Shown here: one piece after another, positions 7,390-33,987 of the stretch
Layout: the number at the start of each line of letters is the position of its first letter
Numbering within the stretch: the stretch's first letter is position 1
Assembly (NCBI GenBank): GCA_947627895.1
Contig: CANQXV010000002.1
Location: 1-47,204, forward strand
Direction of reading: 5' to 3'
Length of the DNA: 47,204 nucleotides
Source of the DNA: an uncultured Bacilli bacterium
Lineage (GTDB): Bacteria; Bacillota_I; Bacilli_A; RF39; UBA660
Program-made: the position numbers and the translations under genes
Notes under the pieces: model-generated
What the model was told of the DNA's origin: nothing
What the model saw: only the letters and a program-made list of their open reading frames with translations
Database searches by the model: none

Positions 7390-8376
7390 TTATTTTAAAT
7401 CAGGTAAATCTATCTCAAAATCATCAGTATCTTCTTCAAGCCTAATTATCTTTTCAACTTGACTTACTTCTTTTGGGTCTTCTATATTTTCTTTTTTTAT
7501 TTCTGGCAAATCGTTATTTGAGGTTTCCTCTATTATTTCTGAAGCCAAAGCTGGATTTATTACTAATTCAGATACATTATGTGGTTCTTCAATTACCCCA
7601 TTTTCTTTTGCCAGATTAGGTAAACTATCATTTGTTAAAGCATCCGGTATAGGCATCACTGGCCCTATTACTTTTCTTTTCGTATATGGCAAATATAATT
7701 GCTTATGTAATATTTTTCCTAAAGGACTATTAACATCAATTGCTGAAGTTTGTTCTCTTAATTTTCGAATTAAAGATTTTAAAAGAATAAATAAAGCAAT
7801 ACATAAAATTATTAGAAGCAATCCCGTTGAACTGGCAACCATTGCTTGTAATCTTCCTAAACCAGGTATTTTTAAAGCAACTTTACCAATAATACTATTA
7901 AAATTTACCCAGCCGGTGTCTTCGATTGGATTATAATCACCCTTAGTTTGATAACTATAGGTTCCATCTTCATTTTTAATAATCGAAACAATCCGGTGCG
8001 TAATAGTCATTCCTTTAGTTTCTGGACTATTTGAAATAAAGGTAATAACATCACCTATTTTTAAGTCCTCGGGATCATCTATACGTACATCAACAATTAC
8101 ATCATATACTTTAATATTCGGTGTCATACTTCCGCTCATAATGGAATATAGAGAATATTTAGGTTCAAAATTTCGACCAAAAGCGGAGAATAATTTAGTC
8201 GCTACAAAGTAATAAATAAGGAATGAAGCACATAATAAAAGCAACACAAATAAAGTCCAACTAATAATAGTTGAAATTAAATGAAGGATTTCTTTAGGAT
8301 TTGTTGCTGATTTTATGCTTTTTTCCACATTCCTACACTTCCCTATTGTATATTTATTATATCCAATAAAACCCAA
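7390..8376 (-). CDS. sipW: SipW/archaeal-ER-type signal peptidase I (S26B) with second TM and about 130 aa acidic C-terminal tail
   Basis: Motifs SGSMTP (catalytic Ser box), GDVITF, THRIV (His box) and TKGDYNP..D. TM before the catalytic domain and TM LLLIILCIALFILL after it. The ORF start is a TTG without SD. An in-frame GTG at about 8328 preceded by GGGAAG may be the real start. Confidence 0.8.
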   Translation of the reverse strand: MGFIGYNKYTIGKCRNVEKSIKSATNPKEILHLISTIISWTLFVLLLLCASFLIYYFVATKLFSAFGRNFEPKYSLYSIMSGSMTPNIKVYDVIVDVRIDDPEDLKIGDVITFISNSPETKGMTITHRIVSIIKNEDGTYSYQTKGDYNPIEDTGWVNFNSIIGKVALKIPGLGRLQAMVASSTGLLLIILCIALFILLKSLIRKLREQTSAIDVNSPLGKILHKQLYLPYTKRKVIGPVMPIPDALTNDSLPNLAKENGVIEEPHNVSELVINPALASEIIEETSNNDLPEIKKENIEDPKEVSQVEKIIRLEEDTDDFEIDLPDLK

Positions 8377-8421: not shown

Positions 8422-9210
8422 TTAGAGACCCATTAGTTTTAAGACGGCGAAGATTAATAAAATCATTAATCCTAAACCAGTGGTGATTAACATACTCATA
8501 GTTTTACCTTCCATCTTTTCTAACCGGTTTTTATATTTAGTTTCCCGTGCTTTTTGTTGTAAAGATGATATAGTTCTTGAAAAAGCAAGAATTTGTTCTT
8601 GTTTTCTTTCTTGACGACCTAAACTTAACCGATATAGGAGCCGCATCATCCGCATAGAATCTCGAACTGGATATTTTCTGGCAAATTCCATATATGGCTC
8701 AATGGTATCATCCCCAGAATTAATAGCATCAATCATTTCTCTTAATCCATCTCTAAATATTTCGGGAGCATCGGCCATACTTTTACCAATTGCAACAGGT
8801 ACTGTATAATGTTGAATTAAAATTTCCAAATTTTTTAAATAATACGGTAACATAGCATCAATAGTATTAATATGTCTAGCATAGTATTTTTTTATATCAT
8901 TATAAGGCATCTTAAAAACAAAGAACCCCGCGACAAAAACTAATAATAATTTAACACTATTAAAATCTTTTAATAAAAGGAATAATACCAATACCATAAC
9001 AATTAAAGCATTTTTAATTCTTTTATTAAATAAGATGTCGGGATTTGTCCCATTACCATACTTAGCCCGCACATAAAAATCCCAGTCACTTTCTTTCATT
9101 TTCATGAAAATCATTTGGTTATCAATAATTAATTGATTAATATTAATTTGACCAGTATACGCCATAATGAAGAAAATGATAAAGGCTAAAATAATAATCT
9201 CTGGTTGCAT
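8422..9210 (-). CDS. TadC-like inner-membrane platform protein (T2SSF-like topology)
   Basis: N-terminal TMs, a central helical soluble domain of about 130 aa, and a C-terminal TM. TAATG coupling to the upstream paralogous-looking gene. Located directly after the CpaF-like ATPase. Confidence 0.55.
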   Translation of the reverse strand: MQPEIIILAFIIFFIMAYTGQININQLIIDNQMIFMKMKESDWDFYVRAKYGNGTNPDILFNKRIKNALIVMVLVLFLLLKDFNSVKLLLVFVAGFFVFKMPYNDIKKYYARHINTIDAMLPYYLKNLEILIQHYTVPVAIGKSMADAPEIFRDGLREMIDAINSGDDTIEPYMEFARKYPVRDSMRMMRLLYRLSLGRQERKQEQILAFSRTISSLQQKARETKYKNRLEKMEGKTMSMLITTGLGLMILLIFAVLKLMGL

Positions 9211-10115
9211 TATTCTACCCCCACATCTGCATTATAGTATTTTTCTCCCGATAGAAGAAACAATGCGTTTATAATTACAATGGCATGCAAAATGATTTGA
9301 ACATACCATATATCTAGCAAGGATATATAATTTTCTTCACCTAGTAAGAATCTTAAAACAACTACTAATAAAAATAACATTAAACCAAATTTAATAAACC
9401 GACCATGGAAGTTTTTTCGATCCATTTGATCGCGATAGACACCTTCAACTAAGGCATCAATATCCATAGACATATTTTCTAGAGATTCCCCTGAATCCTT
9501 GGCTCCTTCTTGAGTAATTTGTAAAAACAATTGATGCATATTTTTAACCATGTAATAAGGATATTTTTCATTAAAGTATTCTAGCGATGCATTAATCGTC
9601 CCATTTTGATAAGACATATCAATCATCTTTTTAACATCATCTAAAACAGGGTTTTCTAAAATTCCAGAATCTCGAACTCCTTCCAAAGATTTAACAAAAC
9701 TTTGAGTGGTATTAAATTCCATAATAACATTGGTCGTATAAGTTTGAATTTGTTCAAAAACATATTCACTATAAATTCTTTGACATCTTAAGAAAGCCAA
9801 ATATGGAATAAAGGAAATAGTAATTGCCGCATAAATAATGGCTATAATAATACTATAAAAGTAAAAATAACCAATTAAACCTGCAAAGCCCCCCATTAAG
9901 ATAGCTTGAACTAAATATTGCCGAGCATTATATTCTTGCCCTAATTCCACAGCTTTTTCCCGAACTGTTTTAAATGAATAAGGAGCATAACTATCATATA
10001 TTTTTCCAACACTTGAAATAATAAATTGATAAACATTTTCACCCGGATTTTTGCGATATAAAAAGACAAAAAGGGCTATAAATATTAAAATTATAAGTTC
10101 TGTGAATGTTTGCAT
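9210..10115 (-). CDS. TadB-like inner-membrane platform protein (T2SSF-like topology)
   Basis: Same architecture as 8422-9210 (N-terminal TMs, central helical domain, two C-terminal TMs). SD AGGAGGGA. 11 nt after the ATPase gene. Confidence 0.55.
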   Translation of the reverse strand: MQTFTELIILIFIALFVFLYRKNPGENVYQFIISSVGKIYDSYAPYSFKTVREKAVELGQEYNARQYLVQAILMGGFAGLIGYFYFYSIIIAIIYAAITISFIPYLAFLRCQRIYSEYVFEQIQTYTTNVIMEFNTTQSFVKSLEGVRDSGILENPVLDDVKKMIDMSYQNGTINASLEYFNEKYPYYMVKNMHQLFLQITQEGAKDSGESLENMSMDIDALVEGVYRDQMDRKNFHGRFIKFGLMLFLLVVVLRFLLGEENYISLLDIWYVQIILHAIVIINALFLLSGEKYYNADVGVE

Positions 10116-10126
10116 ATTAATCCCTC

Positions 10127-11242
10127 CTATAAACTTTCTATAGTCATATTTCCAGCTGGTATTTCTTCATCAGTTCCAATATCATCACTTGCTACAAAAT
10201 AATGTGGGTCTAATTCTACACCCTGAACACCTAAATACTCAATTAAATACTTACTTGGATTATGAAAATCAAAAGTACCATCTAATCTTTTTTTAAATAT
10301 AATATTAGAGCAAGCATGGTTTTTATCATCAACATAAAATTCTACAACTTCAATAATTTCTCTTTGAAACCGGCCTAATTCCTTACTCATATAACCTTTA
10401 ACATGCACCCCAATTTGAACATATCTATGAATGGATGTTAAAAATTGTTCAATATCAATGTTATTTTCTAGCAAACTATATAACCGCATAGGAATATTTA
10501 AGGCCCTATCAGAGTGAATAGTTGAAATAATATTGTGCCCAGATGAAATAGAGTTACGAACTGCCATAACAGCTTCAGCACTACGAACTTCGGATAGTAA
10601 AATCCATTTTGGGTTTTGCCGCATGCAAGTTACTAAAACATCCGTATAGGAAGCAATATTATTCGTTTTTACCGCAACGATATCACGATGGGGAAATATT
10701 TTATCTAAGTGTAATTCCAAAGTATCTTCAACTGTTATTATTTTTTCATTTTCTTTCGTATGACTCGCTAAATATTTTACCAGTTCCGTTTTCCCAGAAC
10801 CAGTTTCCCCACTGACAATAATATTGCAGTGCCCTTCTACACATGTCATTAAAAAATCATGAAGATTTTCGGTAACGTATTGTTCATTTAATAATTTTTC
10901 TTTATTTAACCGGATTTTGGCAGGGGTTTTTCTGATAGTACAAGAAATTCCATTCGTAGCAATGGAATCATGGATAAAGTTAAGCCGTAATTCAGCAGAC
11001 TCAGCATCCAAAAAAGGATGAGCCATATTAAATGACTTACCCATTACGTTAGAACATTGAAAAGCCAGCTTTTCCATCAAAGCATTATTTATTTCTGGCC
11101 TTTCAACCCGATACACACCTTTATCAAGAGTTTTTAGATGAACTTGACCATTATTCGAATAAGAAATATCGGTTACATTATCATCTTCCAAAAACTCTTT
11201 TAAAGGCCCAAAATCAATTTGTGAAAATATGGTATCATTCAC
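10127..11242 (-). CDS. cpaF: CpaF/TadA/VirB11-family secretion ATPase (T2SSE superfamily)
   Basis: Walker A VSGETGSGKTE, Asp box ITVEDTLEL, Walker B WILLSEVR and His box TIHS in the canonical order and spacing. GTG start with SD AGAGGTGA. Confidence 0.85.
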   Translation of the reverse strand: MNDTIFSQIDFGPLKEFLEDDNVTDISYSNNGQVHLKTLDKGVYRVERPEINNALMEKLAFQCSNVMGKSFNMAHPFLDAESAELRLNFIHDSIATNGISCTIRKTPAKIRLNKEKLLNEQYVTENLHDFLMTCVEGHCNIIVSGETGSGKTELVKYLASHTKENEKIITVEDTLELHLDKIFPHRDIVAVKTNNIASYTDVLVTCMRQNPKWILLSEVRSAEAVMAVRNSISSGHNIISTIHSDRALNIPMRLYSLLENNIDIEQFLTSIHRYVQIGVHVKGYMSKELGRFQREIIEVVEFYVDDKNHACSNIIFKKRLDGTFDFHNPSKYLIEYLGVQGVELDPHYFVASDDIGTDEEIPAGNMTIESL

Positions 11243-11264
11243 AAATAGTCACCTCTTTTTTATT

Positions 11265-12032
11265 TTAATATGATACTTGTTCTGAACGAGATTGAATAAA
11301 TTCAACTAACCGCATACTACCAACGGATGTTTCCCCAGCAGCATCAGTATAATTCCGTCCTCTTGGAACTGGGAATAATTCAACTCCGCTAATATTTTTA
11401 GCACTTGTTAGCAATAAGTGTTGTTCATCAATTAAACCAAATATTAATAAAGCCGGAGTTCTAGTTGTGTTAGAATCAAACACATTTTGATTTTGACTAT
11501 CTTTAACCGCTAAAACCTTAGCGCTTTCAAGTAACTTACCTACTAATATTGTTCCATTATCATTTGCTCGCATATAGATATCAACATAACTTCCTGGATA
11601 AATAGAGTTACCAAAAGTAGTCTTATTATTAACATCTAATTGGAAAGGAGCATATCCCTCTGGTAAATCATCATAATCAGATCCTGGTAGATCTTCAAGT
11701 TTAACAACTTGGCTAGAATAAAATAATCCACCTTCAGGAATAGATGTACCAACATTAACATAGTAACCAATTAATTTGTTAGCATCAGTAATAATACTAA
11801 TATTATTTAAAAATTCACTACTAATTTCAATATACTTAATATCTTCTTTCGTTATTTGCGTTCTGGCTGTAATAGCGTGTTCCGCATAGGGTACTTTAAT
11901 TGGGCTAACCGCTTTATTAACTCTGTAATTATAAAATACCCATAGCACTATAACACCAGCCAATATACCAAGAATAGTTACCGTATTTTTATTAGCGATA
12001 AATTTTTTTATTGTATTGATTAAATTTCCCAT
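11265..12032 (-). CDS. cpaB: CpaB/RcpC-like pilus assembly protein (N-terminal TM plus SAF-like domain)
   Basis: TM VTILGILAGVIVLWVFY. SAF-like segment AITARTQITKEDI. C-terminal beta-rich region with AKVLAV...ALLIF, as in CpaB. Immediately upstream of the ATPase. Confidence 0.7.
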   Translation of the reverse strand: MGNLINTIKKFIANKNTVTILGILAGVIVLWVFYNYRVNKAVSPIKVPYAEHAITARTQITKEDIKYIEISSEFLNNISIITDANKLIGYYVNVGTSIPEGGLFYSSQVVKLEDLPGSDYDDLPEGYAPFQLDVNNKTTFGNSIYPGSYVDIYMRANDNGTILVGKLLESAKVLAVKDSQNQNVFDSNTTRTPALLIFGLIDEQHLLLTSAKNISGVELFPVPRGRNYTDAAGETSVGSMRLVEFIQSRSEQVSY

Positions 12033-12047
12033 TTTATTCTTCTCCTT

Positions 12048-13778
12048 CTATACAGCACTCCAGAAGTAATCACCAGCATTGCTAGTTACACATTTAATTC
12101 GTTGATGACATGAAGTAGGGTGATCACATGATTTATTAGTATCATTATCTTCGAAATGCCACCATTCACTTGAAATTGTTTTTAAACCAGCATTAACCAT
12201 ATAACTAGCAAGCTTTTTTGCAAAATCATTATTATTTTTCTTTGAAGCAGCAGCACTTAATTCATGCATATCGGTTGGCATTGTTGCACCTTTTATTGAT
12301 ATATCAACAGCACAACCCGTATTATGAGCAGAAGGACCAGTCGATAAGTACCACCCTAATGCATACGGATTCATCGCTGCTTGTACTTTGGTATTACCAT
12401 AATATAAACTATTATAAGCTTCATATAATTTTTGAGTTACACCCCTAGGCCGATATGCATCATATACAACTAAAGTATAACCATCATTTCGAGCACTTTG
12501 AGCGGCTTGTTTTAATTGTTTAGCAAATGAATACACTCCTATTGGCCGATAGTCATTTGAATATAATTTTTTATTTTTTATACTTGAAGGTGAGAAAGTT
12601 TCTCCTTTATAAGTCGTTTTATATTGACTACTATAAGTATTATATATATCAAACTCTACTAAACCTTTTAAATACTCTGACATATCAATAGCCGCATAAG
12701 TGTCGGTCCGCATCCAACCGCATTTTTCTTGACCATTACTAGTATATTTAACTGCCCACCATTCAATATTATTAGCGCCATTACGTGAGCCTAAAATTTC
12801 ATAAATATTTCCAGCTTTTATAGTATCAGTTGGGTTTTGAGTTGACCAGTCTTTATAAATTCCAACTCCTGCCATAACTGTACCATGAACACCTTCTAAG
12901 GTTCGAGATTGGATATTTTCTTCATCAGGAAGACATGATTGAGGAACATTTCCAGCTTTATTTGTTTTGAAACTTCCTGTTATTACAGGAGATACATTAC
13001 CAGCTTCATCCTTAACATAAGCCTTAAAATTATAACTAGTATCAGGACTTAAACCATTAAATGTAAATGTATTATTACTACTACTTTCATAATTAGAACC
13101 ATTGTCTTTACTAACAAAATATTCTGTAATTTTACTACTACCAGCCGTTTCAACAACATGAACGGTTATAGAACTATCTGTTACTTCTGTGCTTTCTATT
13201 TTATTAGCAGTTGGTCCTTCGGTACTAGGGTTAGTAACAGAAGGGTTTTCTGTCGTTGTCCCTTCGGTACCTGAACCAGGTGTCGTTGTACCTGGTTGAG
13301 TATTTTCTTCTGTTCCTGGAGTTGTTGTTCCACTACTACCAGAAGAAGGATTTTCATCCGTGATATTAGGATCTAAAACATTACCTTCTAAAATTGTATC
13401 GATTCTATTTACAATATCAAATGAGGTTGAATCACCTACAACAGTGAAACTTCCCGATTTTCCTTTTACCTCCACACTAGCCTTTGGTGGTGCTTCATAC
13501 ACATCATAGAAATTAATTGTATATGTCGTTGTTAAAGATGCATTTTCTGCGAATCTTCTAATGAAACTTTCAAAGAATTTTTCCTTATTTATTTTTATTT
13601 CGCCATATTGACGATAATAGGCGAAGTCTACGGCATCTACCATAGCTGCTTCGGTTAATTCTTTTACCAAGAAATAATCTTGTTGGTTATTAGTTGTAAC
13701 ACTTTGTACTAATAACATTATTACAACAATGAAAACACCTAATAATATTAACCAATAAGTCCAAAAAGCATTTTTCAC
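12048..13778 (-). CDS. Membrane-anchored multidomain protein: pilin-like N-terminus, Thr/Gly/Pro linker, FN3, SH3b-like, VanX-type M15 D-Ala-D-Ala peptidase
   Basis: TM WLILLGVFIVVIMLLV. Linker SSGSSGTTTPGTEENTQPGTTTPGSGTEGTTT. FN3 signature (ITVHV...LSPDTSYNFKAYVKDEAGNVS). SH3b-like segment (GNIYEILG...WWAVKY...GWM). M15 motifs YRP, SAHNTGCAVD and EWWHFE. Confidence 0.8.
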   Translation of the reverse strand: MKNAFWTYWLILLGVFIVVIMLLVQSVTTNNQQDYFLVKELTEAAMVDAVDFAYYRQYGEIKINKEKFFESFIRRFAENASLTTTYTINFYDVYEAPPKASVEVKGKSGSFTVVGDSTSFDIVNRIDTILEGNVLDPNITDENPSSGSSGTTTPGTEENTQPGTTTPGSGTEGTTTENPSVTNPSTEGPTANKIESTEVTDSSITVHVVETAGSSKITEYFVSKDNGSNYESSSNNTFTFNGLSPDTSYNFKAYVKDEAGNVSPVITGSFKTNKAGNVPQSCLPDEENIQSRTLEGVHGTVMAGVGIYKDWSTQNPTDTIKAGNIYEILGSRNGANNIEWWAVKYTSNGQEKCGWMRTDTYAAIDMSEYLKGLVEFDIYNTYSSQYKTTYKGETFSPSSIKNKKLYSNDYRPIGVYSFAKQLKQAAQSARNDGYTLVVYDAYRPRGVTQKLYEAYNSLYYGNTKVQAAMNPYALGWYLSTGPSAHNTGCAVDISIKGATMPTDMHELSAAASKKNNNDFAKKLASYMVNAGLKTISSEWWHFEDNDTNKSCDHPTSCHQRIKCVTSNAGDYFWSAV

Positions 13779-13796
13779 CTAAATGTCACTCCCTTT

Positions 13797-16700
13797 CTAT
13801 TTATATGATGGACCACCAATTACATTTTCATCATATCTATATTCTGTCCAAGGTTCCCAATAAGTACTACTTTGAACATTTTCATTTGATCTTTTTCCAG
13901 CTGGTACCCGACCGGATTTAATATGTTTAACAGCATCTGTTTTATCTATTAATTCATCAATAAATGTACTAAAACAGAACACATTTTCATGAACCCGATG
14001 TTCACTATCTTCATAATCATAACATTCAGTTGTAATGTTATTATATCCACCAACTTTTTGACTTTCTACTTCTTTATTGTAATCTAAGATAAAGTTTGTT
14101 GTATTAGGATCTAATTTAACCCTTAACTCTAAATGTGGATTATCCACTGAATCATCATAAATTGTTGTATTTGCCTCTTCAATATTAGTAATTGTTTCTT
14201 CAGCCTTTTCTCTAATTAATGAAAGTGAAGCAAGAGTTGAATTAATATTCCAGTTATAGCCATATTCTCGATCAACGGATTCGAAATTAGTTGGTGATAC
14301 CGGTTTAACATTAAATTGTAAATCACCTAAGTTATAAATACAGTTTACACATTCAATACCACAATCTGGGCATTCTTTCCAATAACAATACTCTCCTTCA
14401 CATTCGAAGTCACATGTTGGGCAATCTGAAGGGTTACATGTTGTGTAATAATGACATACATAATTACCATCCCATGATCCTTCACTAACACCTAGGGCAT
14501 TTGCCACACTAGAACTGACGTGATCACCATCGAAATCAACTAATCTACCTAAAGCAGCAGTATCATAAAATTCTCCTAAATCTTCAATATGCATTTTGAA
14601 AACTCCACCACCATAGGCATCAATTGAAAGTGGAAGACCACCATAAGTTGGATAATCTCCTACTGGTGAAAGTTGAACACCAGGACCAGTATAATCCTTA
14701 TTAGTTGTTATACCTCCACTGGCAGGACCACTTGATGAAACTTGATAAAATACTGTTGGTGTAATATATTCTTGTTCTACATCAAAATGTTGTTTTATAA
14801 ATTTAGCTTTTGATACTTGTTGCGTATCAGTTGTACATCCACTAGTTGTACATGTCGTATATTTGAAATCAGCGAACATTGTATCTATACTTGTCCAGCC
14901 TGTTGAACAATCATTATCACCAAATTGATTATTAACATTGCCTTCACAAGCTTGGATTTTTTGATCAATTGTTATATCATCCACTGGTACTAAATATTTA
15001 TCTTCATCTGATACCATATCATAATATTGTTGATCATATTCCCAATAAATTTTTGGATCAAAATTGAAATCGTTAGTCCAATCTTTTGTACATGAATTGT
15101 AATTTTTAATAATGTTTTCATATTTAGTTTTAGCAGAATCTAAATCAGATTTAGCAGATTCAATATCAGAATCAATTTCATCAGCCAAATCTTCTTTGCT
15201 ATCGGCTGGACCATAGCTAAAACTACCGGCAGCTGGTTCGGTTGAAACATAACCAGTTGTTCTATTAGAATCAGCAGTTTGGATTCCTGAATAAGTTCCT
15301 GATGTTGAATATTCCCATTTTAGGCATGAGCCTGTGGTATCTTCAACCTCTTTTTCTACACCATTTTCATCTTTTATTTTTATCGTAGGATATTCCGCAC
15401 AAGACTCATCAACTTCTCCATTGCTAGCAGCTGTAGCTTCTAAATAATCATTATAAGCATCAATAAATGCTTTTTGGGCATCAATTATATCGTTAATATA
15501 TTTTTCTTGATCTATTGATTTATCGGCTGTATTTGCAGAACCACGATAACAATCCATGCTTCCTTTAATCGTGGATTTTAATTTAAAATATCCACCACAA
15601 TTAATTTTATCTAATGCTTTATTTAATGAAATTTCCCGATAATCTTCTTTACAGAAGGTACCACAATATTCATTATTTACCCCACCAAGGTTTTCTTCTA
15701 ATTTATAAGAGTTACCAGCGTCATCTTTATTATTGATAACACATTTTTTAATATCTGTAGGAGCTGTTATAGAAGCCTTACCATCTTCTTCTTCAGAACA
15801 TACAGGAGTTTCTAAAGTAGTTTCGCAACTTAATCCTAAACATGCAATACCATTAATAGTGTATTGTAATTGCTTATCATTATTATCATTATTGCCCGCA
15901 ACGTAGTTATTAGGAACAACACCCAAATATCTTTGTGTACCTGATGATATATTATCATCTAATAAAGCGATTGAAACATCTGCAGTTTCTGGAACATAGT
16001 AATTTAAAACAATATTTGCATCACAATTTTCAGATTCTGTTTCATTTTTACTAAGAGTAATTTTTAATTTAACATTACCATTTTCATCCATGAATTTAGA
16101 AATATCTATTCTAGAAGTTAATTCTTTCCATTCACCATTTTCACTATATTCAACTTTTTCAATGGCTACACCATTTTTTTCACAATTATTGCACACAATA
16201 TCTGAACGGCCAATTTTTACATAGCCATCTTCATCTTTAGTTATTTTGAAATTAACAATCTTTTCTTCATGATTTCTATCAGCAGCTTGCCCATTAGTAA
16301 CATTAATACCAACTTCTGTATTATTACTTATACCACCATTATTTTTAAATTCATAAGCAGCATCAATACCCATTCTAATTAGATTTTTAGCTTGATCAAG
16401 CACGCTTCCGCCTGAAAAAGATGTCCCTTTTGATGGCTTTTTAACATTAACACCTATAGCAGATAATTTATCAGCATTTTCTTGGGCCATTTCATATCCT
16501 AAGTTCATAACAGCATACTTAGCAGCAACCATGTTTGCATCGCCACTATAATCGTTATCTTCAAGACCCATAATAGCATTATAATATGCTCTTACTGCAA
16601 TGTCTGTGGATACAATTAAAGTTTTACTATCACGTCTAGTTTTACCACCATTGGCTAAAATTGTATATAAACCATAATATTGAGCACGAAAATTAATATC

Positions 16701-17006
16701 TTTCGTAGTATCATTAAAGTTATATACTTGTGTAACCTTAACAGTTGTGCCTGGTTTATTATTACTATCAGCTGGGTCTACGCAGTACATTTTAATTTCT
16801 TTGTTGCCTGAGGTACCGTAATAGTTCCAAACATTATAATCTTGGCTACCAGCTTTTACACCTAAACCACTAGCTAAATTATTATGCGATTCCCAATGAA
16901 ACGTGTACTTATCGCCAACAGTATATGCAGCTTTTACACTATTAATTCCTACTCCTAAAGTAAGTGATGTTAAAATTAATAAGAATAAGATTTTTAATTT
17001 TCTCAT
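13797..17006 (-). CDS. Large secreted Cys-rich protein, unknown family
   Basis: Sec signal MRKLKILFLLILTSLTLGVGINSVKA/AY. No LPXTG and no C-terminal TM. Many Cys, including a dense CxxC module at about nt 14340-14465. ATGA overlap with the upstream gene. Confidence 0.75.
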   Translation of the reverse strand: MRKLKILFLLILTSLTLGVGINSVKAAYTVGDKYTFHWESHNNLASGLGVKAGSQDYNVWNYYGTSGNKEIKMYCVDPADSNNKPGTTVKVTQVYNFNDTTKDINFRAQYYGLYTILANGGKTRRDSKTLIVSTDIAVRAYYNAIMGLEDNDYSGDANMVAAKYAVMNLGYEMAQENADKLSAIGVNVKKPSKGTSFSGGSVLDQAKNLIRMGIDAAYEFKNNGGISNNTEVGINVTNGQAADRNHEEKIVNFKITKDEDGYVKIGRSDIVCNNCEKNGVAIEKVEYSENGEWKELTSRIDISKFMDENGNVKLKITLSKNETESENCDANIVLNYYVPETADVSIALLDDNISSGTQRYLGVVPNNYVAGNNDNNDKQLQYTINGIACLGLSCETTLETPVCSEEEDGKASITAPTDIKKCVINNKDDAGNSYKLEENLGGVNNEYCGTFCKEDYREISLNKALDKINCGGYFKLKSTIKGSMDCYRGSANTADKSIDQEKYINDIIDAQKAFIDAYNDYLEATAASNGEVDESCAEYPTIKIKDENGVEKEVEDTTGSCLKWEYSTSGTYSGIQTADSNRTTGYVSTEPAAGSFSYGPADSKEDLADEIDSDIESAKSDLDSAKTKYENIIKNYNSCTKDWTNDFNFDPKIYWEYDQQYYDMVSDEDKYLVPVDDITIDQKIQACEGNVNNQFGDNDCSTGWTSIDTMFADFKYTTCTTSGCTTDTQQVSKAKFIKQHFDVEQEYITPTVFYQVSSSGPASGGITTNKDYTGPGVQLSPVGDYPTYGGLPLSIDAYGGGVFKMHIEDLGEFYDTAALGRLVDFDGDHVSSSVANALGVSEGSWDGNYVCHYYTTCNPSDCPTCDFECEGEYCYWKECPDCGIECVNCIYNLGDLQFNVKPVSPTNFESVDREYGYNWNINSTLASLSLIREKAEETITNIEEANTTIYDDSVDNPHLELRVKLDPNTTNFILDYNKEVESQKVGGYNNITTECYDYEDSEHRVHENVFCFSTFIDELIDKTDAVKHIKSGRVPAGKRSNENVQSSTYWEPWTEYRYDENVIGGPSYK

Positions 17007-17764
17007 AAATCAAGACTCCTTTTTCTTTTAACTATCACAACTACTGCAACCCCCGCTACAATAACTAGAGCAGCTCCACCGCCAATAAAATAATATTTGT
17101 TATCAGCAATAAAGTCCATTATTCTTTTCCATAAACTATTGTCATATTCATTCGCATTGATGCCTTGATTCCTTTTGTTGGTTAAATATTCGGTTATTTG
17201 TTCTAAAAAATTTATTTGTTCAACATAATCGAACGTTACATATTTTTGACATAAATTAAATTCTGGAGCATCCGTACATAATGCATAATCATAATATTCA
17301 TTAAATCTTGGTAACTTCAGCGTTATCGTTCGCATTAATTCATTTGGACAACCGGTATTTTCACTAGTATAAACTTTAATTGTAAAGTTTGTTACTTGCT
17401 CCAAATTTCGCCAAGGAAACGTAATAATATCATCCGTACTATTACTATTATTATACCGAACCCTTTCCTTATCATAATCATTTGTTACTTCAATATAAAA
17501 TTTGTCCGTAATATTTGAAACCGAAATGTCAAAATAATTGACTTTAGGAGGATCTATCTCTGTTGTCTCATCACCTGCATCTGGAAATCCATATATACTT
17601 GGATCCAAATCTTCTTCCATTTCTTGATTCATTGCTCTTATATTGCCTGCTGCAGTTCTAAGTTCTGCTTGTTCCGAAGTTGAACATACACTTGCAGCCC
17701 CAACATTACTAACAAAAATCACACTAATCAAGAAAGCAAATATTACTTTTAGAAATCTTTGCAT
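17003..17764 (-). CDS. Type I membrane protein (signal peptide plus C-terminal TM anchor), first gene of the Tad-like operon
   Basis: Signal FLISVIFVSNVGA/AS. C-terminal TM GGGAALVIVAGVAVVVIV followed by KRKRS. SD AGGTGG. Confidence 0.7.
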   Translation of the reverse strand: MQRFLKVIFAFLISVIFVSNVGAASVCSTSEQAELRTAAGNIRAMNQEMEEDLDPSIYGFPDAGDETTEIDPPKVNYFDISVSNITDKFYIEVTNDYDKERVRYNNSNSTDDIITFPWRNLEQVTNFTIKVYTSENTGCPNELMRTITLKLPRFNEYYDYALCTDAPEFNLCQKYVTFDYVEQINFLEQITEYLTNKRNQGINANEYDNSLWKRIMDFIADNKYYFIGGGAALVIVAGVAVVVIVKRKRSLDL

Positions 17765-24979: not shown

Positions 24980-26197
24980 TTAATAAGAAATTAAAGTTAT
25001 ACGCGCATAGCCATCACCTTTTTTAGCGTATTGGCTTACTGGGTCTTCACTAACATTATCAGTTGTATAGGTTCGAGTATCTTCTTCCGTACTTTCAGTA
25101 CATTGATAACAATACATAGCTTTATTTGTTAATAACCAATTACCTATGTATCCAGAACCTCCGCCACCACCACCATGGCCTCGGGTACTTCCGCCTCCTC
25201 CATATAAGCCGCCTCCTCCGCCAGCTCCACCAAGGCCACCTGAATGATAATTACCACCCTGTCCAAATGAACCTAATGCCGTATCGTTTTTAAATACTAT
25301 ATCATCGCCAGGACTTTCTTGTGTTCCACCAGTACCAACATATGTATTTCCTAGTGGATTCGCTCCATAATTTCCTTGTATTCCTCCTCCTGAACCCCCT
25401 AGATTACCATTTTGTAAATATACATTTCCATAATTATCGAAAGCACCTCCATTGCCACCGCCGCCCCCAGCAACAATCAAAATTTTATCTCTTTCATTTT
25501 CTAAATCCTTAAGAAGACTATTTATAGTTGATATATGTGTAGCTCCTCCCCCACCAAAAGCATATAGACCATTATTACCTATTCCATCACCGCCACCATT
25601 ATATCCTCCTTTATATGTTTTAAATTGTCCTCCTTCTGTTTTACCTGTTCCATCATATCCTTCTCCTTGGCCGCCAACATATACATATAGTGTTTCACCT
25701 TTTTTTAATGTTATTTCTCCAGATGAATATCCACCAAAACCTCCTGTCTCGGTTATTTCTGGAACATCATCTATTCCTCCTTGGGCACCCCACACCTCTA
25801 GTTTATAAGTTCCGTCAAATGGCACATTAAATTCTTGTGGTGTCTCCGTAAAACCAAAATTGTATGTTTTAGGTTTATCAAAATAAACATAACATTTATC
25901 ACTGGTAGTTGTATTCACTATTATTTTGTTATCTTTCCATGATAAGGTACTGCCATTTTCACACTTACTTAAATAAGGATTAAACATATAATCTTGTTTA
26001 GGCCAAGTATTACTTAAAGATTTCTCATATTCATCACTGTTTTCATCTTTTTGAAGCATAATACTTAACATATCATTGGTATTATCATATTCACTATCAA
26101 AAACTATCCTTTTATGGTGCATGCTATACATTGTTACACCTACGATTGATAAAGTAAATAACATTCCTAATATAAATGAAACCATTATTTTTTTCAT
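24980..26197 (-). CDS. Membrane-anchored glycine-rich protein (Gly_rich / ALK-LTK GRD-like domain)
   Basis: Start moved to the ATG at 26197 (SD AAGGTGA). TM IMVSFILGMLFTLSIVGV. Motifs FNVPFDGTYKLEVWGAQGG, LYVYVGGQG, GGGGATHI and ILIVAGGGGGNGG, followed by long poly-Gly runs. Confidence 0.75.
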   Translation of the reverse strand: MKKIMVSFILGMLFTLSIVGVTMYSMHHKRIVFDSEYDNTNDMLSIMLQKDENSDEYEKSLSNTWPKQDYMFNPYLSKCENGSTLSWKDNKIIVNTTTSDKCYVYFDKPKTYNFGFTETPQEFNVPFDGTYKLEVWGAQGGIDDVPEITETGGFGGYSSGEITLKKGETLYVYVGGQGEGYDGTGKTEGGQFKTYKGGYNGGGDGIGNNGLYAFGGGGATHISTINSLLKDLENERDKILIVAGGGGGNGGAFDNYGNVYLQNGNLGGSGGGIQGNYGANPLGNTYVGTGGTQESPGDDIVFKNDTALGSFGQGGNYHSGGLGGAGGGGGLYGGGGSTRGHGGGGGGSGYIGNWLLTNKAMYCYQCTESTEEDTRTYTTDNVSEDPVSQYAKKGDGYARITLISY

Positions 26198-26231
26198 ATG
26201 TATCACCTTACTATTTTAAAAGCATTATATC

Positions 26232-31517: not shown

Positions 31518-33596
31518 CTACCAAGATAATCGATAAGGATTTCCAAGTGTACCATCACCTGATGCAATCTCAGTGCTAGACTTTAGATAGAAGGTAGGAC
31601 GTACACAATGGTCAATGCTGTACACTGTCCAGTTATCAACTCGACCACCACTGTCAACGCGGAATGCATCGTACCAATTGTCAGTCCGCCGTGTAATTGT
31701 CCATTCATACAATCCCATATACATCCAATTGCTTGTCGATATATTATCTTGATTATAATTATATATTTCCGTTTGCCAATTCTCTGAACTTGTTGCATAT
31801 CCATAGTCACTTACATACATTAGTCCTATCTTAGCTGTTGTTTTATCGTCTACTTCTGTTGCACTTGCATTTGTAATTCCTCTATCTGGATTAACTATTT
31901 CATTTTTGTAAGAATCTACTGCTATTATATGATAATATACTTTATAATAATTATTACCGGCTGTTATCCATTCATGTTTTGTTATTTGATCTACTATTTT
32001 TTCTTTTTTACCGTCTGTAGTTCTTAAATACTCTAAAAATTTTGTATTTAAGTTGTATGTATTTAGTGTACTACCTTTCCATAAATTTGAATCATTATCA
32101 CTACTTGCCCAGTAGTATTTTGGAACTTGTTCTAGCTCTCCTTTATATGTTGATTCTGATGATTTAATATAGTTACTTTCAGGATTTCTTGCTCCGTCGA
32201 CTCCAAGTTGTCCTTCTGTCGCATAATCTGCTTTGATTAATTTCATTTCATAGTCATTAAATTTATTTTTAAATAATCCTATAATTCTATATAAATCATC
32301 ATTTGAACATTCGTCTTCACCTGTTTTATTATCTAAACATACATAATTATGTACATTTTCACTTGAACCGCTATATCTATATGACTCATCGTTTGCATCA
32401 ATTATTGATGATTCAGCATAGCCATCAGTTAATGCTTTTTGAAGAGCTTGTTTAAATGTATAAGGTGTTTGAGAGGTATCATAGGCTAATGTATAATGTT
32501 GTGGATTTGATGGATCGCAATAATGGCCTATAAAATATTCGTCATTATTACAATAAAATTTTATCAATCTGTTTTCACTTAATTCTGAAGAATCACTTGC
32601 ATATAATATTCCATATTCACTTTGATGATTAGGAGTTATTTGATAACCACCTATTATTTCAGTATCTTCGGTATTATCTAGTTGAGATGGTGCCTTTATT
32701 GTCCCATTATGGTGTATTAATGTATCTTCTTCGGAATCTACTAATAATTTAGTTATATTTTTTTCATATGCTGGTACATATTCTTCTTTTTGGATTATTA
32801 CTTTTCCACTTACACTCTTTCCTGTATTTATTTCTTGGTCAGTTGGTAAGTTTATAAATGTTAGTGTTATTTCCCATTCATCTTCTTTTGGATTTGGTTG
32901 ACTTCCATCTTCTGGAGCCGTTACTGCTATAGTACCTGTTTCATCGGTGCTTATCTTTATAATTCCACCTTTTTCGGTTATATCATATCCATTTAAAGTT
33001 CTAGTTTGTTCTCCTGATTCATCATTATATTTTATTTCTATTCCTTCTTTATAGTATGATTCTAAACTTGTTATATTTTTAATTTCTGTACCATTCTTTT
33101 TGACTGTTAGTATTAATTCGGGTATTCCTTCTGTATATGCTTCCTTTTCTTCAGAACTCAATGGTGCAAGTTTTACATTTCCATCTGTATCCTTATAACT
33201 TGAATACTCTAATTCATTTGTATCTATATGTAAGTATACATTATAAGTTTCGTTGGCTTCCCTCGTTGTACTATTTGCTTTTAATACTACTTTACCTGTT
33301 ACTCCATCTGCTATACTTTCAGCATTTTCTTTAAAGTTTGTCATTGTTGCATTTATGGTTATTGCTGATTCTGAATCATTATCAGTTATATGATTAGATG
33401 CATCAGTTACATTTTTATCTTCCATGCTAAATGTTAAGGAATCTGTTGTTCCGGTTTGAGCACTTACATCAATATGTTGTCCATCTCCAGTTTGAGCTTG
33501 AAAGTAAGCATAGGTGGCACCTGCTACTACTATTAATAATGTAAGTACTCCTATTATTAGTAATATTGTACTTTTTCTTTTATTTTGTTCTTTCAT
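31518..33596 (-). CDS. Large exported protein with SipW-cognate (TasA/CalY-type) signal peptide and conserved C-terminal VRP-motif domain
   Basis: N-terminus KRKSTILLIIGVLTLLIVVAGATYAYFQAQ resembles TasA GGGTWAAFND and CalY GGTFAYFSD. The C-terminus ...WTITRR...FRVDSGGRV...VRPTFYLKS...GDGTLGNPYRL resembles DUF6273-like modules. Confidence 0.7.
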   Translation of the reverse strand: MKEQNKRKSTILLIIGVLTLLIVVAGATYAYFQAQTGDGQHIDVSAQTGTTDSLTFSMEDKNVTDASNHITDNDSESAITINATMTNFKENAESIADGVTGKVVLKANSTTREANETYNVYLHIDTNELEYSSYKDTDGNVKLAPLSSEEKEAYTEGIPELILTVKKNGTEIKNITSLESYYKEGIEIKYNDESGEQTRTLNGYDITEKGGIIKISTDETGTIAVTAPEDGSQPNPKEDEWEITLTFINLPTDQEINTGKSVSGKVIIQKEEYVPAYEKNITKLLVDSEEDTLIHHNGTIKAPSQLDNTEDTEIIGGYQITPNHQSEYGILYASDSSELSENRLIKFYCNNDEYFIGHYCDPSNPQHYTLAYDTSQTPYTFKQALQKALTDGYAESSIIDANDESYRYSGSSENVHNYVCLDNKTGEDECSNDDLYRIIGLFKNKFNDYEMKLIKADYATEGQLGVDGARNPESNYIKSSESTYKGELEQVPKYYWASSDNDSNLWKGSTLNTYNLNTKFLEYLRTTDGKKEKIVDQITKHEWITAGNNYYKVYYHIIAVDSYKNEIVNPDRGITNASATEVDDKTTAKIGLMYVSDYGYATSSENWQTEIYNYNQDNISTSNWMYMGLYEWTITRRTDNWYDAFRVDSGGRVDNWTVYSIDHCVRPTFYLKSSTEIASGDGTLGNPYRLSW

Positions 33597-33666
33597 TTCA
33601 CTACCTCATAATTATATTTTCCTACTTTAGGATTATCTATACCTATCATATTAAAATAAGAATACC

Positions 33667-33700: not shown

Positions 33701-33729
33701 TTTAAAATAAACTAAAATTGGTGATAAAA

Positions 33730-33987
33730 ATGCGATTAAGAGATATTAGAGAAGATCATGATTTAACACAAGCCGAAGTAGGAAAAATATTAAATGTTAC
33801 TCAAACAGCTTATAGTGCCTATGAATTAGGCAAAAGACAAATACCAATTGAAGCTTTAATAAAGCTTGCTAAATTTTATCATACATCAGTTGACTATTTA
33901 CTAGAGTTAACTGATGAAAGAAAACCTTATCCAAAATCTTATATTCAAAAAGAAGAATTAGAAAAATTACTTAAAATTGGTGTGTAA
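33730..33987 (+). CDS. XRE-family HTH regulator with conserved C-terminal TDERxPYPKS tail
   Basis: Start moved to the ATG at 33730 (SD GGTGA). HTH RLRDIREDHDLTQAEVGKILNVTQTAYSAYELG. Paralog of 42593-42850. Confidence 0.85.
   Translation: MRLRDIREDHDLTQAEVGKILNVTQTAYSAYELGKRQIPIEALIKLAKFYHTSVDYLLELTDERKPYPKSYIQKEELEKLLKIGV

Follow-up and report, generated by a model that had tools for sequence, protein, structure and literature searches.

Leaders of the SipW-cognate kind, such as those of TasA and CalY, end in the junction G-x-T-[WFY]-A|[AY]-F, and the TasA and CalY junctions agree with those quoted in a preliminary description of the locus reported here. The uncultured RF39/RFN20-like Bacilli are frequent inhabitants of the guts of humans and animals, and to our knowledge next to nothing is known of their contact with their surroundings. 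In C. perfringens, sipW-bsaA-bsaB-bsaC provides a SipW-linked exported set that includes the large non-fibre cargo BsaC, and a disordered N-terminal segment of the Bsa system has been proposed as a donor strand (bioRxiv 10.1101/2024.11.04.621531). Here we analyzed a gene for a 692-aa protein in a window of 47,204 nucleotides (the whole stretch of DNA under analysis); the literature searched for the TIGR04088/SipW-cognate class and for diversity-generating retroelements (DGRs) together with RF39 contained nothing on its protein family. We presume that the gene product is a binding protein that is exported to the cell surface or secreted, one of a large family without a name in uncultured gut Bacilli with small genomes, and we give this reading, jointly with cleavage by a SipW-type peptidase and ligand binding by the head, a probability of about 0.55.

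Paralog family, domain plan and lectin-like head

The gene (31518..33596, minus strand) encodes 692 aa of an unnamed, putatively exported family with a lectin-like head, and direct reading of the sequence shows the ribosome-binding site GAGGTAG (33601..33607, minus strand) 7 nt 5' of the ATG. Translation confirmed the reading frame given earlier, with the start MKEQNKRKSTILLIIGVLTLLIVVAGATYAYFQAQ and the C-terminal end ...WTITRR...VRPTFYLKS...GNPYRLSW. The mature part, previously called rich in Thr, Asn and Glu, was moderately rich in Thr (10.0% vs 6.0% in the genome) and only slightly enriched in Asn and Glu; Tyr and Trp were also enriched.

A scan of the genome's ORFs placed the gene in a family of about 19 paralogs (18-19), which takes up 2.4% of the DNA of the 1.18-Mb genome. 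More than 1,240 homologs from uncultured gut Bacilli, none of them named and none with a Pfam domain, have the N- and C-terminal motifs in common with the 692-aa protein, and in most of them a single BLAST segment spans only about 42% of the query. Two head-less paralogs (325 and 329 aa) are located on C29, just upstream of rplM-rpsI. The downstream partner of the 692-aa gene was not conserved, its 209-aa neighbour being unrelated to the gene 3' of a homolog in L001; the 120 nt upstream contained no G or C tract and so no homopolymer phase-variation signal, and promoter-like sites upstream showed no excess over the shuffled expectation. The preliminary description had overlooked both the paralog family (about 19 copies) and the DUF6273-like nature of what it called a W/Y-rich module.

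The protein is built from a leader, then a beta-sandwich peculiar to the family, and at the C-terminus a DUF6273-like C-type-lectin-like head, and the two AF2 models were confident (pLDDT 81 and 85). The family-defining N-domain (residues 53-270; 32787..33440, minus strand) was modelled as a beta-sandwich with pLDDT of about 90, followed by a linker with a paralog-specific insert (residues 271-399; 32400..32786, minus strand) in which AF2 predicted residues 309-373 to be disordered. Foldseek gave no significant PDB fold match for the N-domain (best E 2.8e-3, TM<=0.24), and no Pfam model, PF12389 (Peptidase_M73) included, matched the 692-aa protein at E<=1. The TasA-like fold that had earlier been put forward for testing finds no support: Foldseek searches against the PDB with the full model and with the N-domain alone matched no TasA, CalY or AbpA structure, Pfam and the PDB sequence profile gave no such match either, and on these searches TasA homology was rejected for the mature protein.

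The W/Y-rich module proves to be a C-type-lectin-like domain of the DUF6273 kind. The head (residues 400-692; 31521..32399, minus strand) was modelled with pLDDT of about 93 as an enlarged C-type-lectin-like domain related to DUF6273, and its only significant Foldseek match was 9qa6, the Thomasclavelia ramosa IgA peptidase (E 5.3e-6, probability 1.00, 316 columns). Residues 31-322 of 9qa6 form a DUF6273 / C-type-lectin-like N-terminal domain, which is dispensable for the catalysis of the T. ramosa enzyme (PMC12402451, PMC12237041). The DUF6273 model itself, PF19789, did not match the 692-aa protein at E<=1 and weakly matched 6 of 71 homologs (best E 0.0035). We know of no DUF6273 domain for which a ligand has been reported; the head may bind a ligand, for which a glycan or a structure on the surface of the host, of food or of other microbes is the probable candidate.

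One paralog in the same genome, on C71, has a head under active rewriting by a DGR. The variable region of this paralog is the same as the template at 61 of 61 non-A positions, while 16 of the 23 template adenines are substituted, and a reverse transcriptase lies alongside (74.5 bits). The 692-aa gene contains 28 codons homologous to the DGR variable region of its paralogs (residues 640-667, NWYDAFRVDSGGRVDNWTVYSIDHCVRP; 31596..31679, minus strand), with a scaffold common to the C71 variable region; these codons lie in a GC-rich patch (41-49% at 31525-31749 vs 29% in the genome). This patch matched only 27 of 61 (TR1) and 23 of 60 (TR2) non-A positions of the two template repeats and fits neither; therefore the 692-aa gene is not a current DGR target, and represents a copy that either is not diversified or was diversified formerly.

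The conserved leader junction

The leader (residues 1-30; 33507..33596, minus strand) is composed of the K/R-rich n-region MKEQNKRKS, the h-region TILLIIGVLTLLIVVAGA with a hydrophobic core of about 18 residues, and the c-region G-A-T-Y-A, after which Y-F-Q-A-Q follows. The -3/-1 rule is satisfied, and sequence together with position statistics over 118 homologs places the predicted cut at A30/Y31 (median position 30 among the homologs). Position -1 was Ala and position -3 a small residue in 118/118, position -5 was Gly in 110/118 and position +2 was Phe in 117/118; moreover, +1 to +5 and +20 to +22 were nearly invariant in the same set despite predicted disorder. The N-terminal segment of the predicted mature protein (residues 31-52, YFQAQTGDGQHIDVSAQTGTTD; 33441..33506, minus strand) is thus conserved but disordered (AF2 pLDDT <50 in both models), and could possibly act as a donor strand or as a segment recognized by the peptidase.

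Among the 2,354 ORFs of the genome, a T-[FWY]-A-x-F junction within the first 120 residues was present only in this paralog family. The leader DNA is only 66% identical between paralogs, which rules out gene conversion as the source of the leader identity, and because the leader protein is nearly identical at this DNA identity, selection acts on the peptide; the amino-acid sequence of the leader junction is strongly selected. The sequence supports a leader built like a cleavable type-I signal with a TasA/CalY-like junction.

When the leader was compared with TIGR04088, the model of the SipW-cognate signal (curated cut-off 19 bits), the 692-aa protein scored 12.9 bits by hmmscan and 16.4 bits in the genome scan, with residues 15-35 aligned below threshold onto model positions 2-22; TIGR04088 was also its only NCBIfam match. 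The five best matches in the genome were all family members, one of them a C29 paralog above the cut-off (19.1 bits). Across the homologs, TIGR04088 matched 16 of 71 at E<=1 (best 0.0056), and generic membrane-anchor models such as FliL matched about as many. Of the SipW-cognate signal claimed earlier, the junction therefore stands (AGATYA|YF, of the G-x-T-[FWY]-A|[AY]-F type, with the cut at 30/31) while the score falls short, and the genome scan proposed at that time singled out the family while leaving the 692-aa protein itself below the cut-off.

The matches to N-terminal-anchor models also fit an uncleaved signal-anchor, whose helix would stay in the membrane and hold stalk and lectin head at the surface, with GATYAYFQAQ as an interfacial, helix-capping or oligomerisation motif. 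AF2 drew one continuous helix through residues 2-36, which crosses the proposed cut and counts against cleavage. In addition, LPXTG or another anchor is absent from the protein, so that cleavage would lead to shedding of the product unless it assembled on something, and an adhesin with a retroelement-varied head needs attachment to the cell. The best, insignificant PDB sequence matches were N-terminal helices of archaeal pilins, which are kept in the mature protein, and in a model for C. perfringens BsaA the oligomers are held in the membrane by an uncut leader (bioRxiv 10.1101/2024.11.04.621531). However, the invariant Ala at -1, the small residue at -3 and the Gly at -5, all near residue 30, make up a type-I cleavage signature that a plain anchor does not need, the hydrophobic core is short for an anchor at only about 18 residues, and the same junction type is found in small proteins beside sipW genes. 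We consider the uncleaved anchor a serious though unlikely alternative.

The SipW-type peptidase and its surroundings

The candidate processing enzyme is a SipW/archaeal-type signal peptidase I of 328 aa with a long acidic tail (7390..8376, minus strand), which scored 89.6 bits with TIGR02228 (cut-off 51.85) and has intact catalytic motifs (SGSM at 81, THR at 126, GDYN at 146). It is 23 kb from the 692-aa gene. The preliminary description had noted it as the only SipW-type peptidase of the window, and this holds for the whole assembly (93% complete). Other sipW paralogs beside similar substrates had been raised as a point against the link; extra short ones occur in relatives and none in this genome.

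The peptidase had also been described as a member of a Tad-like operon. It is located 45 bp downstream of a TadC-like gene on the same strand; however, its place next to the Tad ATPase is limited to this genome (G000) and to the closest relative (G012). In the other genomes of the genus, the SipW ortholog and the Tad genes are separated, either on distinct contigs or by 85 kb (in G011 the ortholog stands alone, 85 kb from the Tad genes, among unrelated neighbours), and 23 other genomes of the genus carry the Tad ATPase elsewhere, as a core gene. Such non-conserved synteny rules out a functional SipW-Tad operon, and the place of the peptidase beside the Tad-like genes is incidental. If the 692-aa protein were instead a pilin- or pseudopilin-like subunit of this neighbouring machine, its leader would be processed there and its N-terminal helix would drive filament assembly. 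The top PDB sequence matches of the family profile were the archaeal type IV pilins 8fjs and 8tib, and T4P-assisted export of SipW-dependent proteins has a precedent in C. perfringens (bioRxiv 10.1101/2024.11.04.621531). However, these matches are insignificant (E 0.65 and 0.99), there is neither a conserved G/A/S at the prepilin cut site nor a Glu+5, the position just before the hydrophobic core is occupied by S, N, V, P, E, T or L in different paralogs and homologs, and the gene adjacency is limited to the two genomes named above. The insignificant profile matches and the absent prepilin motif rule out a type IV pilin or class III signal, and a Tad subunit is very improbable.

Genomic context elsewhere points to a link between SipW and the family. 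In the related MAG L088, sipW is followed by a 206-aa protein (STFAWF) and then by a family member less than 1 kb from sipW, whose leader (GATYAYFQAQTGEG) is identical and around which small proteins with STFAWF/STYAWF junctions occur. Lectin-headed proteins recur in the sipW islands of G004, G011 and G015, and hhalign placed the family junction onto the STFAWF/STYAWF junctions of the small sipW-island proteins; the signal junction alone was aligned (probability 3-22%), and homology of the mature domains was rejected. In the genus, long SipW was present in 22/24 genomes and the family in 24/24, and a SipW-type peptidase was found in 31/34 family-positive genomes vs 3/14 family-negative relatives of the class (raw counts, phylogeny ignored). 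Against the link, two or three family-positive MAGs (completeness not given) were without SipW, and sipW adjoined a family gene in only 1 of the 80 family loci fetched.

A LepB-type peptidase is also encoded in the genome (C1:4105-4533; TIGR02227, 125.6 bits) and could cut the T-Y-A| site, which obeys the general -3/-1 rule. The leader would then be an ordinary Sec signal peptide processed by this housekeeping enzyme, and the SipW-type enzyme would serve other substrates, consistent with the sub-threshold TIGR04088 score and with the distance of sipW from most family genes. However, unlike in ordinary signal peptides, +1 to +5 and the h-region are conserved in over 100 homologs whose overall identity is about 40%; SipW would be left without an evident substrate, because no other ORF of the genome has a SipW-like junction; and in L088 a family member lies beside sipW. 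We regard processing by LepB as improbable.

The proposal that the 692-aa protein is a substrate of an operon-encoded peptidase is thus retained in part: the single SipW, the TasA/CalY-like junction and the L088 neighbour favor it, whereas the term operon-encoded has to be dropped and the TIGR04088 cut-off was not reached. From the sequence evidence, processing of the 692-aa protein by the SipW-type peptidase at 7390-8376 is plausible, and we lean towards it. We predict that the K/R-rich hydrophobic leader would direct Sec insertion, that the invariant G-A-T-[YF]-A|[YF]-F would be cut at A30/Y31 by the single SipW-type peptidase of the genome, and that the cut would expose the conserved flexible N-terminus YFQAQ...TTD; the paralog repertoire, with retroelement rewriting of some heads, may then yield variable binding specificity. 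It is further conceivable, though doubtful, that the family builds a modular surface fibre of an undescribed kind, in which the post-SipW N-terminus YFQAQ...TTDxLTF would enter the beta-sandwich of the next subunit as a donor strand, the head-less C29 paralogs would form the shaft, about 17 lectin-headed paralogs (some retroelement-rewritten) would serve as interchangeable heads, and the last subunit, with its leader uncut, would anchor the fibre.

Significance and comparison with known systems

The family combines a strictly conserved, probably dedicated export leader with a lectin-like head, which in at least one copy is rewritten by a DGR; one would expect a repertoire of variable adhesins or receptors to be designed in this way. 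Should the SipW link be true, SipW-dependent export would reach beyond matrix fibres (TasA, CalY, BsaA) and take in a large class of binding proteins, and GATYA|YFQAQ would be a simple sequence tag for such proteins in metagenomes. The annotation should be corrected to leader, stalk and DUF6273-like head, with the peptidase as the likely partner and the Tad-like genes not involved.

In common with B. subtilis tapA-sipW-tasA and B. cereus sipW-calY, the 692-aa protein has a G-x-T-[WFY]-A|[AY]-F leader end and a SipW/archaeal-type peptidase in the genome, and the conserved flexible segment after its predicted cut may be likened to the TasA donor strand. Unlike tasA and calY, the 692-aa gene is 23 kb from sipW and its product scores below the TIGR04088 cut-off; unlike TasA and CalY, this product has no PF12389 or TasA Foldseek match, bears a lectin head and is one of about 19 paralogs. 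The C. perfringens Bsa system resembles it in having a large exported protein linked to SipW, a disordered N-terminal segment and possible anchoring by an uncut leader. In contrast to that system, the 692-aa gene is not in an operon with sipW and its link to pilus genes is coincidental, no homology to BsaA, BsaB or BsaC was detected, and no isopeptide residues were identified in the 692-aa protein.

The N-terminal domain of the T. ramosa IgA peptidase is alike in fold to the C-terminal 290 residues of the 692-aa protein, and both come from low-GC gut Bacillota, although sequence identity is only 17% and the DUF6273 domain of the IgA peptidase is N-terminal to the protease in a sortase-anchored protein, whereas the head of the 692-aa protein is C-terminal. 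DGR variable proteins (Bordetella phage Mtd, Treponema TvpA and the DUF6273 tentaclins; PMC10743442) have a head of the same fold class, and as in these proteins the variable patch of the 692-aa gene lies just before the C-terminal VRPxFYL motif; unlike in them, the patch of this gene fits neither template, and the C71 paralog is the active target.

The 692-aa gene and its paralogs

The gene at 31518-33596 (minus strand) starts with ATG, is preceded at a distance of 7 nt by a GAGG ribosome-binding site, and encodes a 692-aa protein whose N-terminus (MKEQNKRKS-TILLIIGVLTLLIVVAGA-TYA-YFQAQ) and C-terminal stretch (...WTITRR...VRPTFYLKS...GNPYRLSW) were read in the sequence as the preliminary description had them. 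The mature part had been called rich in Thr, Asn and Glu, which held for Thr (10.0% vs 6.0% in the genome), while Asn and Glu were only slightly enriched; Tyr and Trp were enriched too. A divergent XRE-type HTH regulator (33718-33987, plus strand) lies 121 bp upstream. Overall, the earlier observation on this gene was confirmed in part, and its interpretation found partial support.

Among all 2,354 ORFs of the source genome, a motif scan confined the junction T-[FWY]-A-x-F to 18-19 genes, which are nearly identical over their first ~55 residues and belong to a family that occupies 2.4% of the genome. Contigs C31, C42, C81 and C84 end inside family genes, and because several members lie at contig ends, the family probably breaks the assembly. 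Short frameshifted leader fragments were present at C41:4293-4451 and C31:8666-8800, and the family probably includes pseudogenes. A protein search returned more than 1,240 homologs, none of them named and with only an occasional FN3 as Pfam domain, and the leader and a C-terminal VRPxFYL...SGxGTxxxP were common to all but one of the 120 homologs listed. Their sources were MAGs of uncultured gut Bacilli ("Firmicutes bacterium CAG:460", Candidatus Onthocola, "Tenericutes" UMGS bins) in rabbit, Hadza and Brazilian samples, and the family profile had 15-48 matches per genome in 24/24 sampled genomes of the same genus.

The SipW-cognate signal model TIGR04088 aligned residues 15-35 of the 692-aa leader to model positions 2-22, with scores of 12.9 bits (hmmscan) and 16.4 bits (whole-genome scan), under the curated cut-off of 19 bits, so that the leader did not pass the HMM check named in the preliminary description. 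The best five matches in the genome scan were all paralogs of the 692-aa gene, one of which, on C29, scored 19.1 bits. The model matched 16/71 homologs at E<=1, generic N-terminal-anchor models did as well, and small proteins adjoining sipW in relatives were also without a score; the model is a short one and clearly insensitive in this lineage. The C29 paralog above the cut-off, the sole such protein of the genome, belongs to a tandem pair of 329 and 325 aa (C29:12448-14570) that consists of leader and N-domain without the C-terminal head, directly precedes rplM-rpsI in the same orientation, and is a candidate for abundant 'shaft' subunits.

Around the predicted cut (median position 30), the 118 homologs carried Gly at -5 (110), Ala at -4 (115), Thr, Ala or Ser at -3 (104, 12 and 2), Tyr or Phe at -2 (98 and 20), Ala at -1 (118/118), Tyr or Phe at +1 (90 and 28), Phe at +2 (117) and Gln at +5 (112). 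This junction, with its helix-breaking Gly and small residues at -3 and -1, has the shape of a canonical type-I signal peptidase site. The proposed SipW-type leader class and its candidate peptidase were reasonable. The paralogs shared just 66% DNA identity over 141 nt around the junction, yet their proteins were almost identical there, which points to selection on the peptide; recent gene conversion as the source of the leader identity was ruled out by the same value. Conservation on both sides of the junction would not be expected of an ordinary signal peptide, which makes cleavage by LepB rather improbable, nor of a plain membrane anchor. An uncleaved signal-anchor would neatly account for retention on the cell of a protein with no other anchor, and we regard it as the main rival, possible but distinctly less likely than processing by SipW.

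The SipW-type peptidase and its probable link to the family

The candidate processor (7390-8376) belongs to the SipW/archaeal type of signal peptidase I, with 89.6 bits against TIGR02228 (cut-off 51.85) and the SGSM, His and GDYN motifs all in place. It had been taken for the only one of its type in the window, and indeed it is single-copy in the whole assembly (1.18 Mb, 29% GC, 93% complete), which also encodes one LepB-type peptidase (C1:4105-4533) and one A24 prepilin peptidase (C59). Its acidic, Pro-rich C-terminal tail of ~130 residues also occurs in the ortholog of the related genome G011.

The description of this peptidase as encoded in the operon of the Tad-like genes (8422-17764) was not supported by gene order in relatives. 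All 24 genus genomes carry the Tad-like ATPase, a core gene of high conservation (83-93% identity), and the peptidase ortholog adjoins it in just two of them, the source genome and its closest relative G012. In G011 one contig carries both, but 85 kb separates them and the genes around the peptidase are unrelated. That the 692-aa protein might be a Tad-system subunit is very unlikely, since the family leader has no prepilin-type cut site and the resemblance of the family profile to archaeal pilin helices was not significant (E 0.65). One protein of the Tad-like cluster (12048-13778, minus strand) combines DUF5411 (184.7 bits), FN3 and a VanY/M15 D-Ala-D-Ala peptidase domain.

No sipW paralog stood beside any family member in the source genome. 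In L088, a locus of a related Hadza MAG, sipW (190 aa; TIGR02228 75.8 bits) is followed by a 206-aa protein (...SSTFAWF) and a 643-aa family member with the N-terminus MEKNKTKIISIASIIALTILIIGATYAYFQAQTGEG, then by small proteins with ...TYAKY and ...SSTYAWF, a 2,469-aa protein and, just past it, a second sipW. The region (L088:8678-21809, CAKOLL010000001.1) is a large sipW island in which two short sipW genes flank small TasA-leader-type proteins; its 2,469-aa protein is a repeat protein, and a homologous giant protein, of which 1,811 aa precede the end of the locus, lies in the island of G004 (locus L011). Short-sipW islands of G011, G015 and G004 encode proteins with the same lectin-type C-terminus and different leaders, and in hhalign the family GATYAyF fell on the STFAWF/STYAWF junctions of the island proteins and nothing else aligned. 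The long-form SipW ortholog was present in 22/24 genus genomes (completeness of the two that lack it, 64% and 83%), and a SipW-type peptidase above cut-off in 31/34 family-positive genomes reached through loci and 3/14 family-negative relatives in the class (Fisher p = 5e-6, a naive value that ignores shared ancestry). Taken together, the L088 order, the sipW islands and the co-occurrence suggest that SipW-type processing is the best reading of the family leader, with a probability of about 0.55.

The lectin-like head and its variation

AlphaFold2 with a 71-sequence alignment (pLDDT 81, pTM 0.76) predicted a leader helix (residues 2-36), a disordered segment to ~residue 47, a beta-rich N-domain (53-270, pLDDT ~90), a linker carrying a disordered insert specific to this paralog (309-373) and a C-terminal head (400-692, pLDDT ~93). 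With the full model, the sole significant Foldseek match in the PDB was the IgA peptidase of Thomasclavelia ramosa (9qa6; 316 columns, E 5.3e-6, probability 1.00). Two papers of 2025 assign residues 31-322 of that enzyme to a DUF6273 domain, the C-type-lectin-like core of which is enlarged; the domain is dispensable for catalysis (PMC12402451, PMC12237041). Because of this fold match and weak PF19789 matches in 6/71 homologs, the "W/Y-rich module" is a DUF6273-like lectin-type head; the preliminary description overlooked this lectin-type identity and the family.

A TasA-like fibre fold, which the preliminary description had suggested testing, was not supported: the N-domain modelled alone (pLDDT 85) had no significant Foldseek match in the PDB (best E 2.8e-3, TM<=0.24), its weak matches were assorted jelly-roll sandwiches, and TasA, CalY and AbpA were absent from the list. 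The predicted mature protein begins with a conserved disordered N-terminus of 22 residues, which would be compatible with a putative donor strand.

A complete diversity-generating retroelement (DGR) lies outside the window on C71:1-2793, with a variable region (225-309) in the 3'-terminal part of a family paralog, a template repeat (TR1, 759-842) 3' of it, a reverse transcriptase (1693-2793; PF00078, 74.5 bits) and an accessory Avd-like ORF between the latter two. Variable region and template agreed at 61/61 non-adenine positions and differed at 16/23 template adenines. A second, Asn-codon-rich template repeat (TR2, C10:~1650-1750) follows another family paralog, and a degenerate reverse-transcriptase gene with an in-frame stop (C22:16231-17729) is 76% identical in DNA with the cassette on C71. 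The C48 paralog matched TR2 at 49/60 non-A positions. The DGR at the family head supports the head as the putative ligand-binding, fast-evolving end of the family.

In the 692-aa gene, the 28 codons homologous to the variable region (residues 640-667) keep the scaffold xAFxVxxxGxV...VRP, and with only 27/61 (TR1) and 23/60 (TR2) non-adenine matches the gene was ruled out as a current DGR target. Its 3' end has a GC spike (41-49% at 31525-31749 vs 29% in the genome) that coincides with these codons and recurs at the 3' ends of many paralogs (C1, C10, C14, C55, C63). Another GC-rich patch (25111-25290), reaching 57% in 120-nt windows, falls within a 408-aa ORF (24980-26206, minus strand), opposite which a 118-aa ORF is nested on the other strand.

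Proposed processing and comparison with known systems

Further, we predict that the 692-aa protein would be inserted in a Sec-dependent manner through its leader and would, on balance, be cut by the one SipW-type peptidase of the genome at A30↓Y31; the stalk and lectin-like head, the fold of which is modelled, would then be displayed or released and may bind a ligand. Diversity would come from the ~19 paralogs and, in some, also from DGR rewriting, as was shown for C71.

We found no description of the family in the literature. Leaders of the SipW-type class, lectin-like heads of the DUF6273 kind and DGR targets are, taken singly, already known. The junctions of TasA and CalY are GGGTWA↓AFND and GGTFA↓YFSD, and the family junction is in the same register as both.
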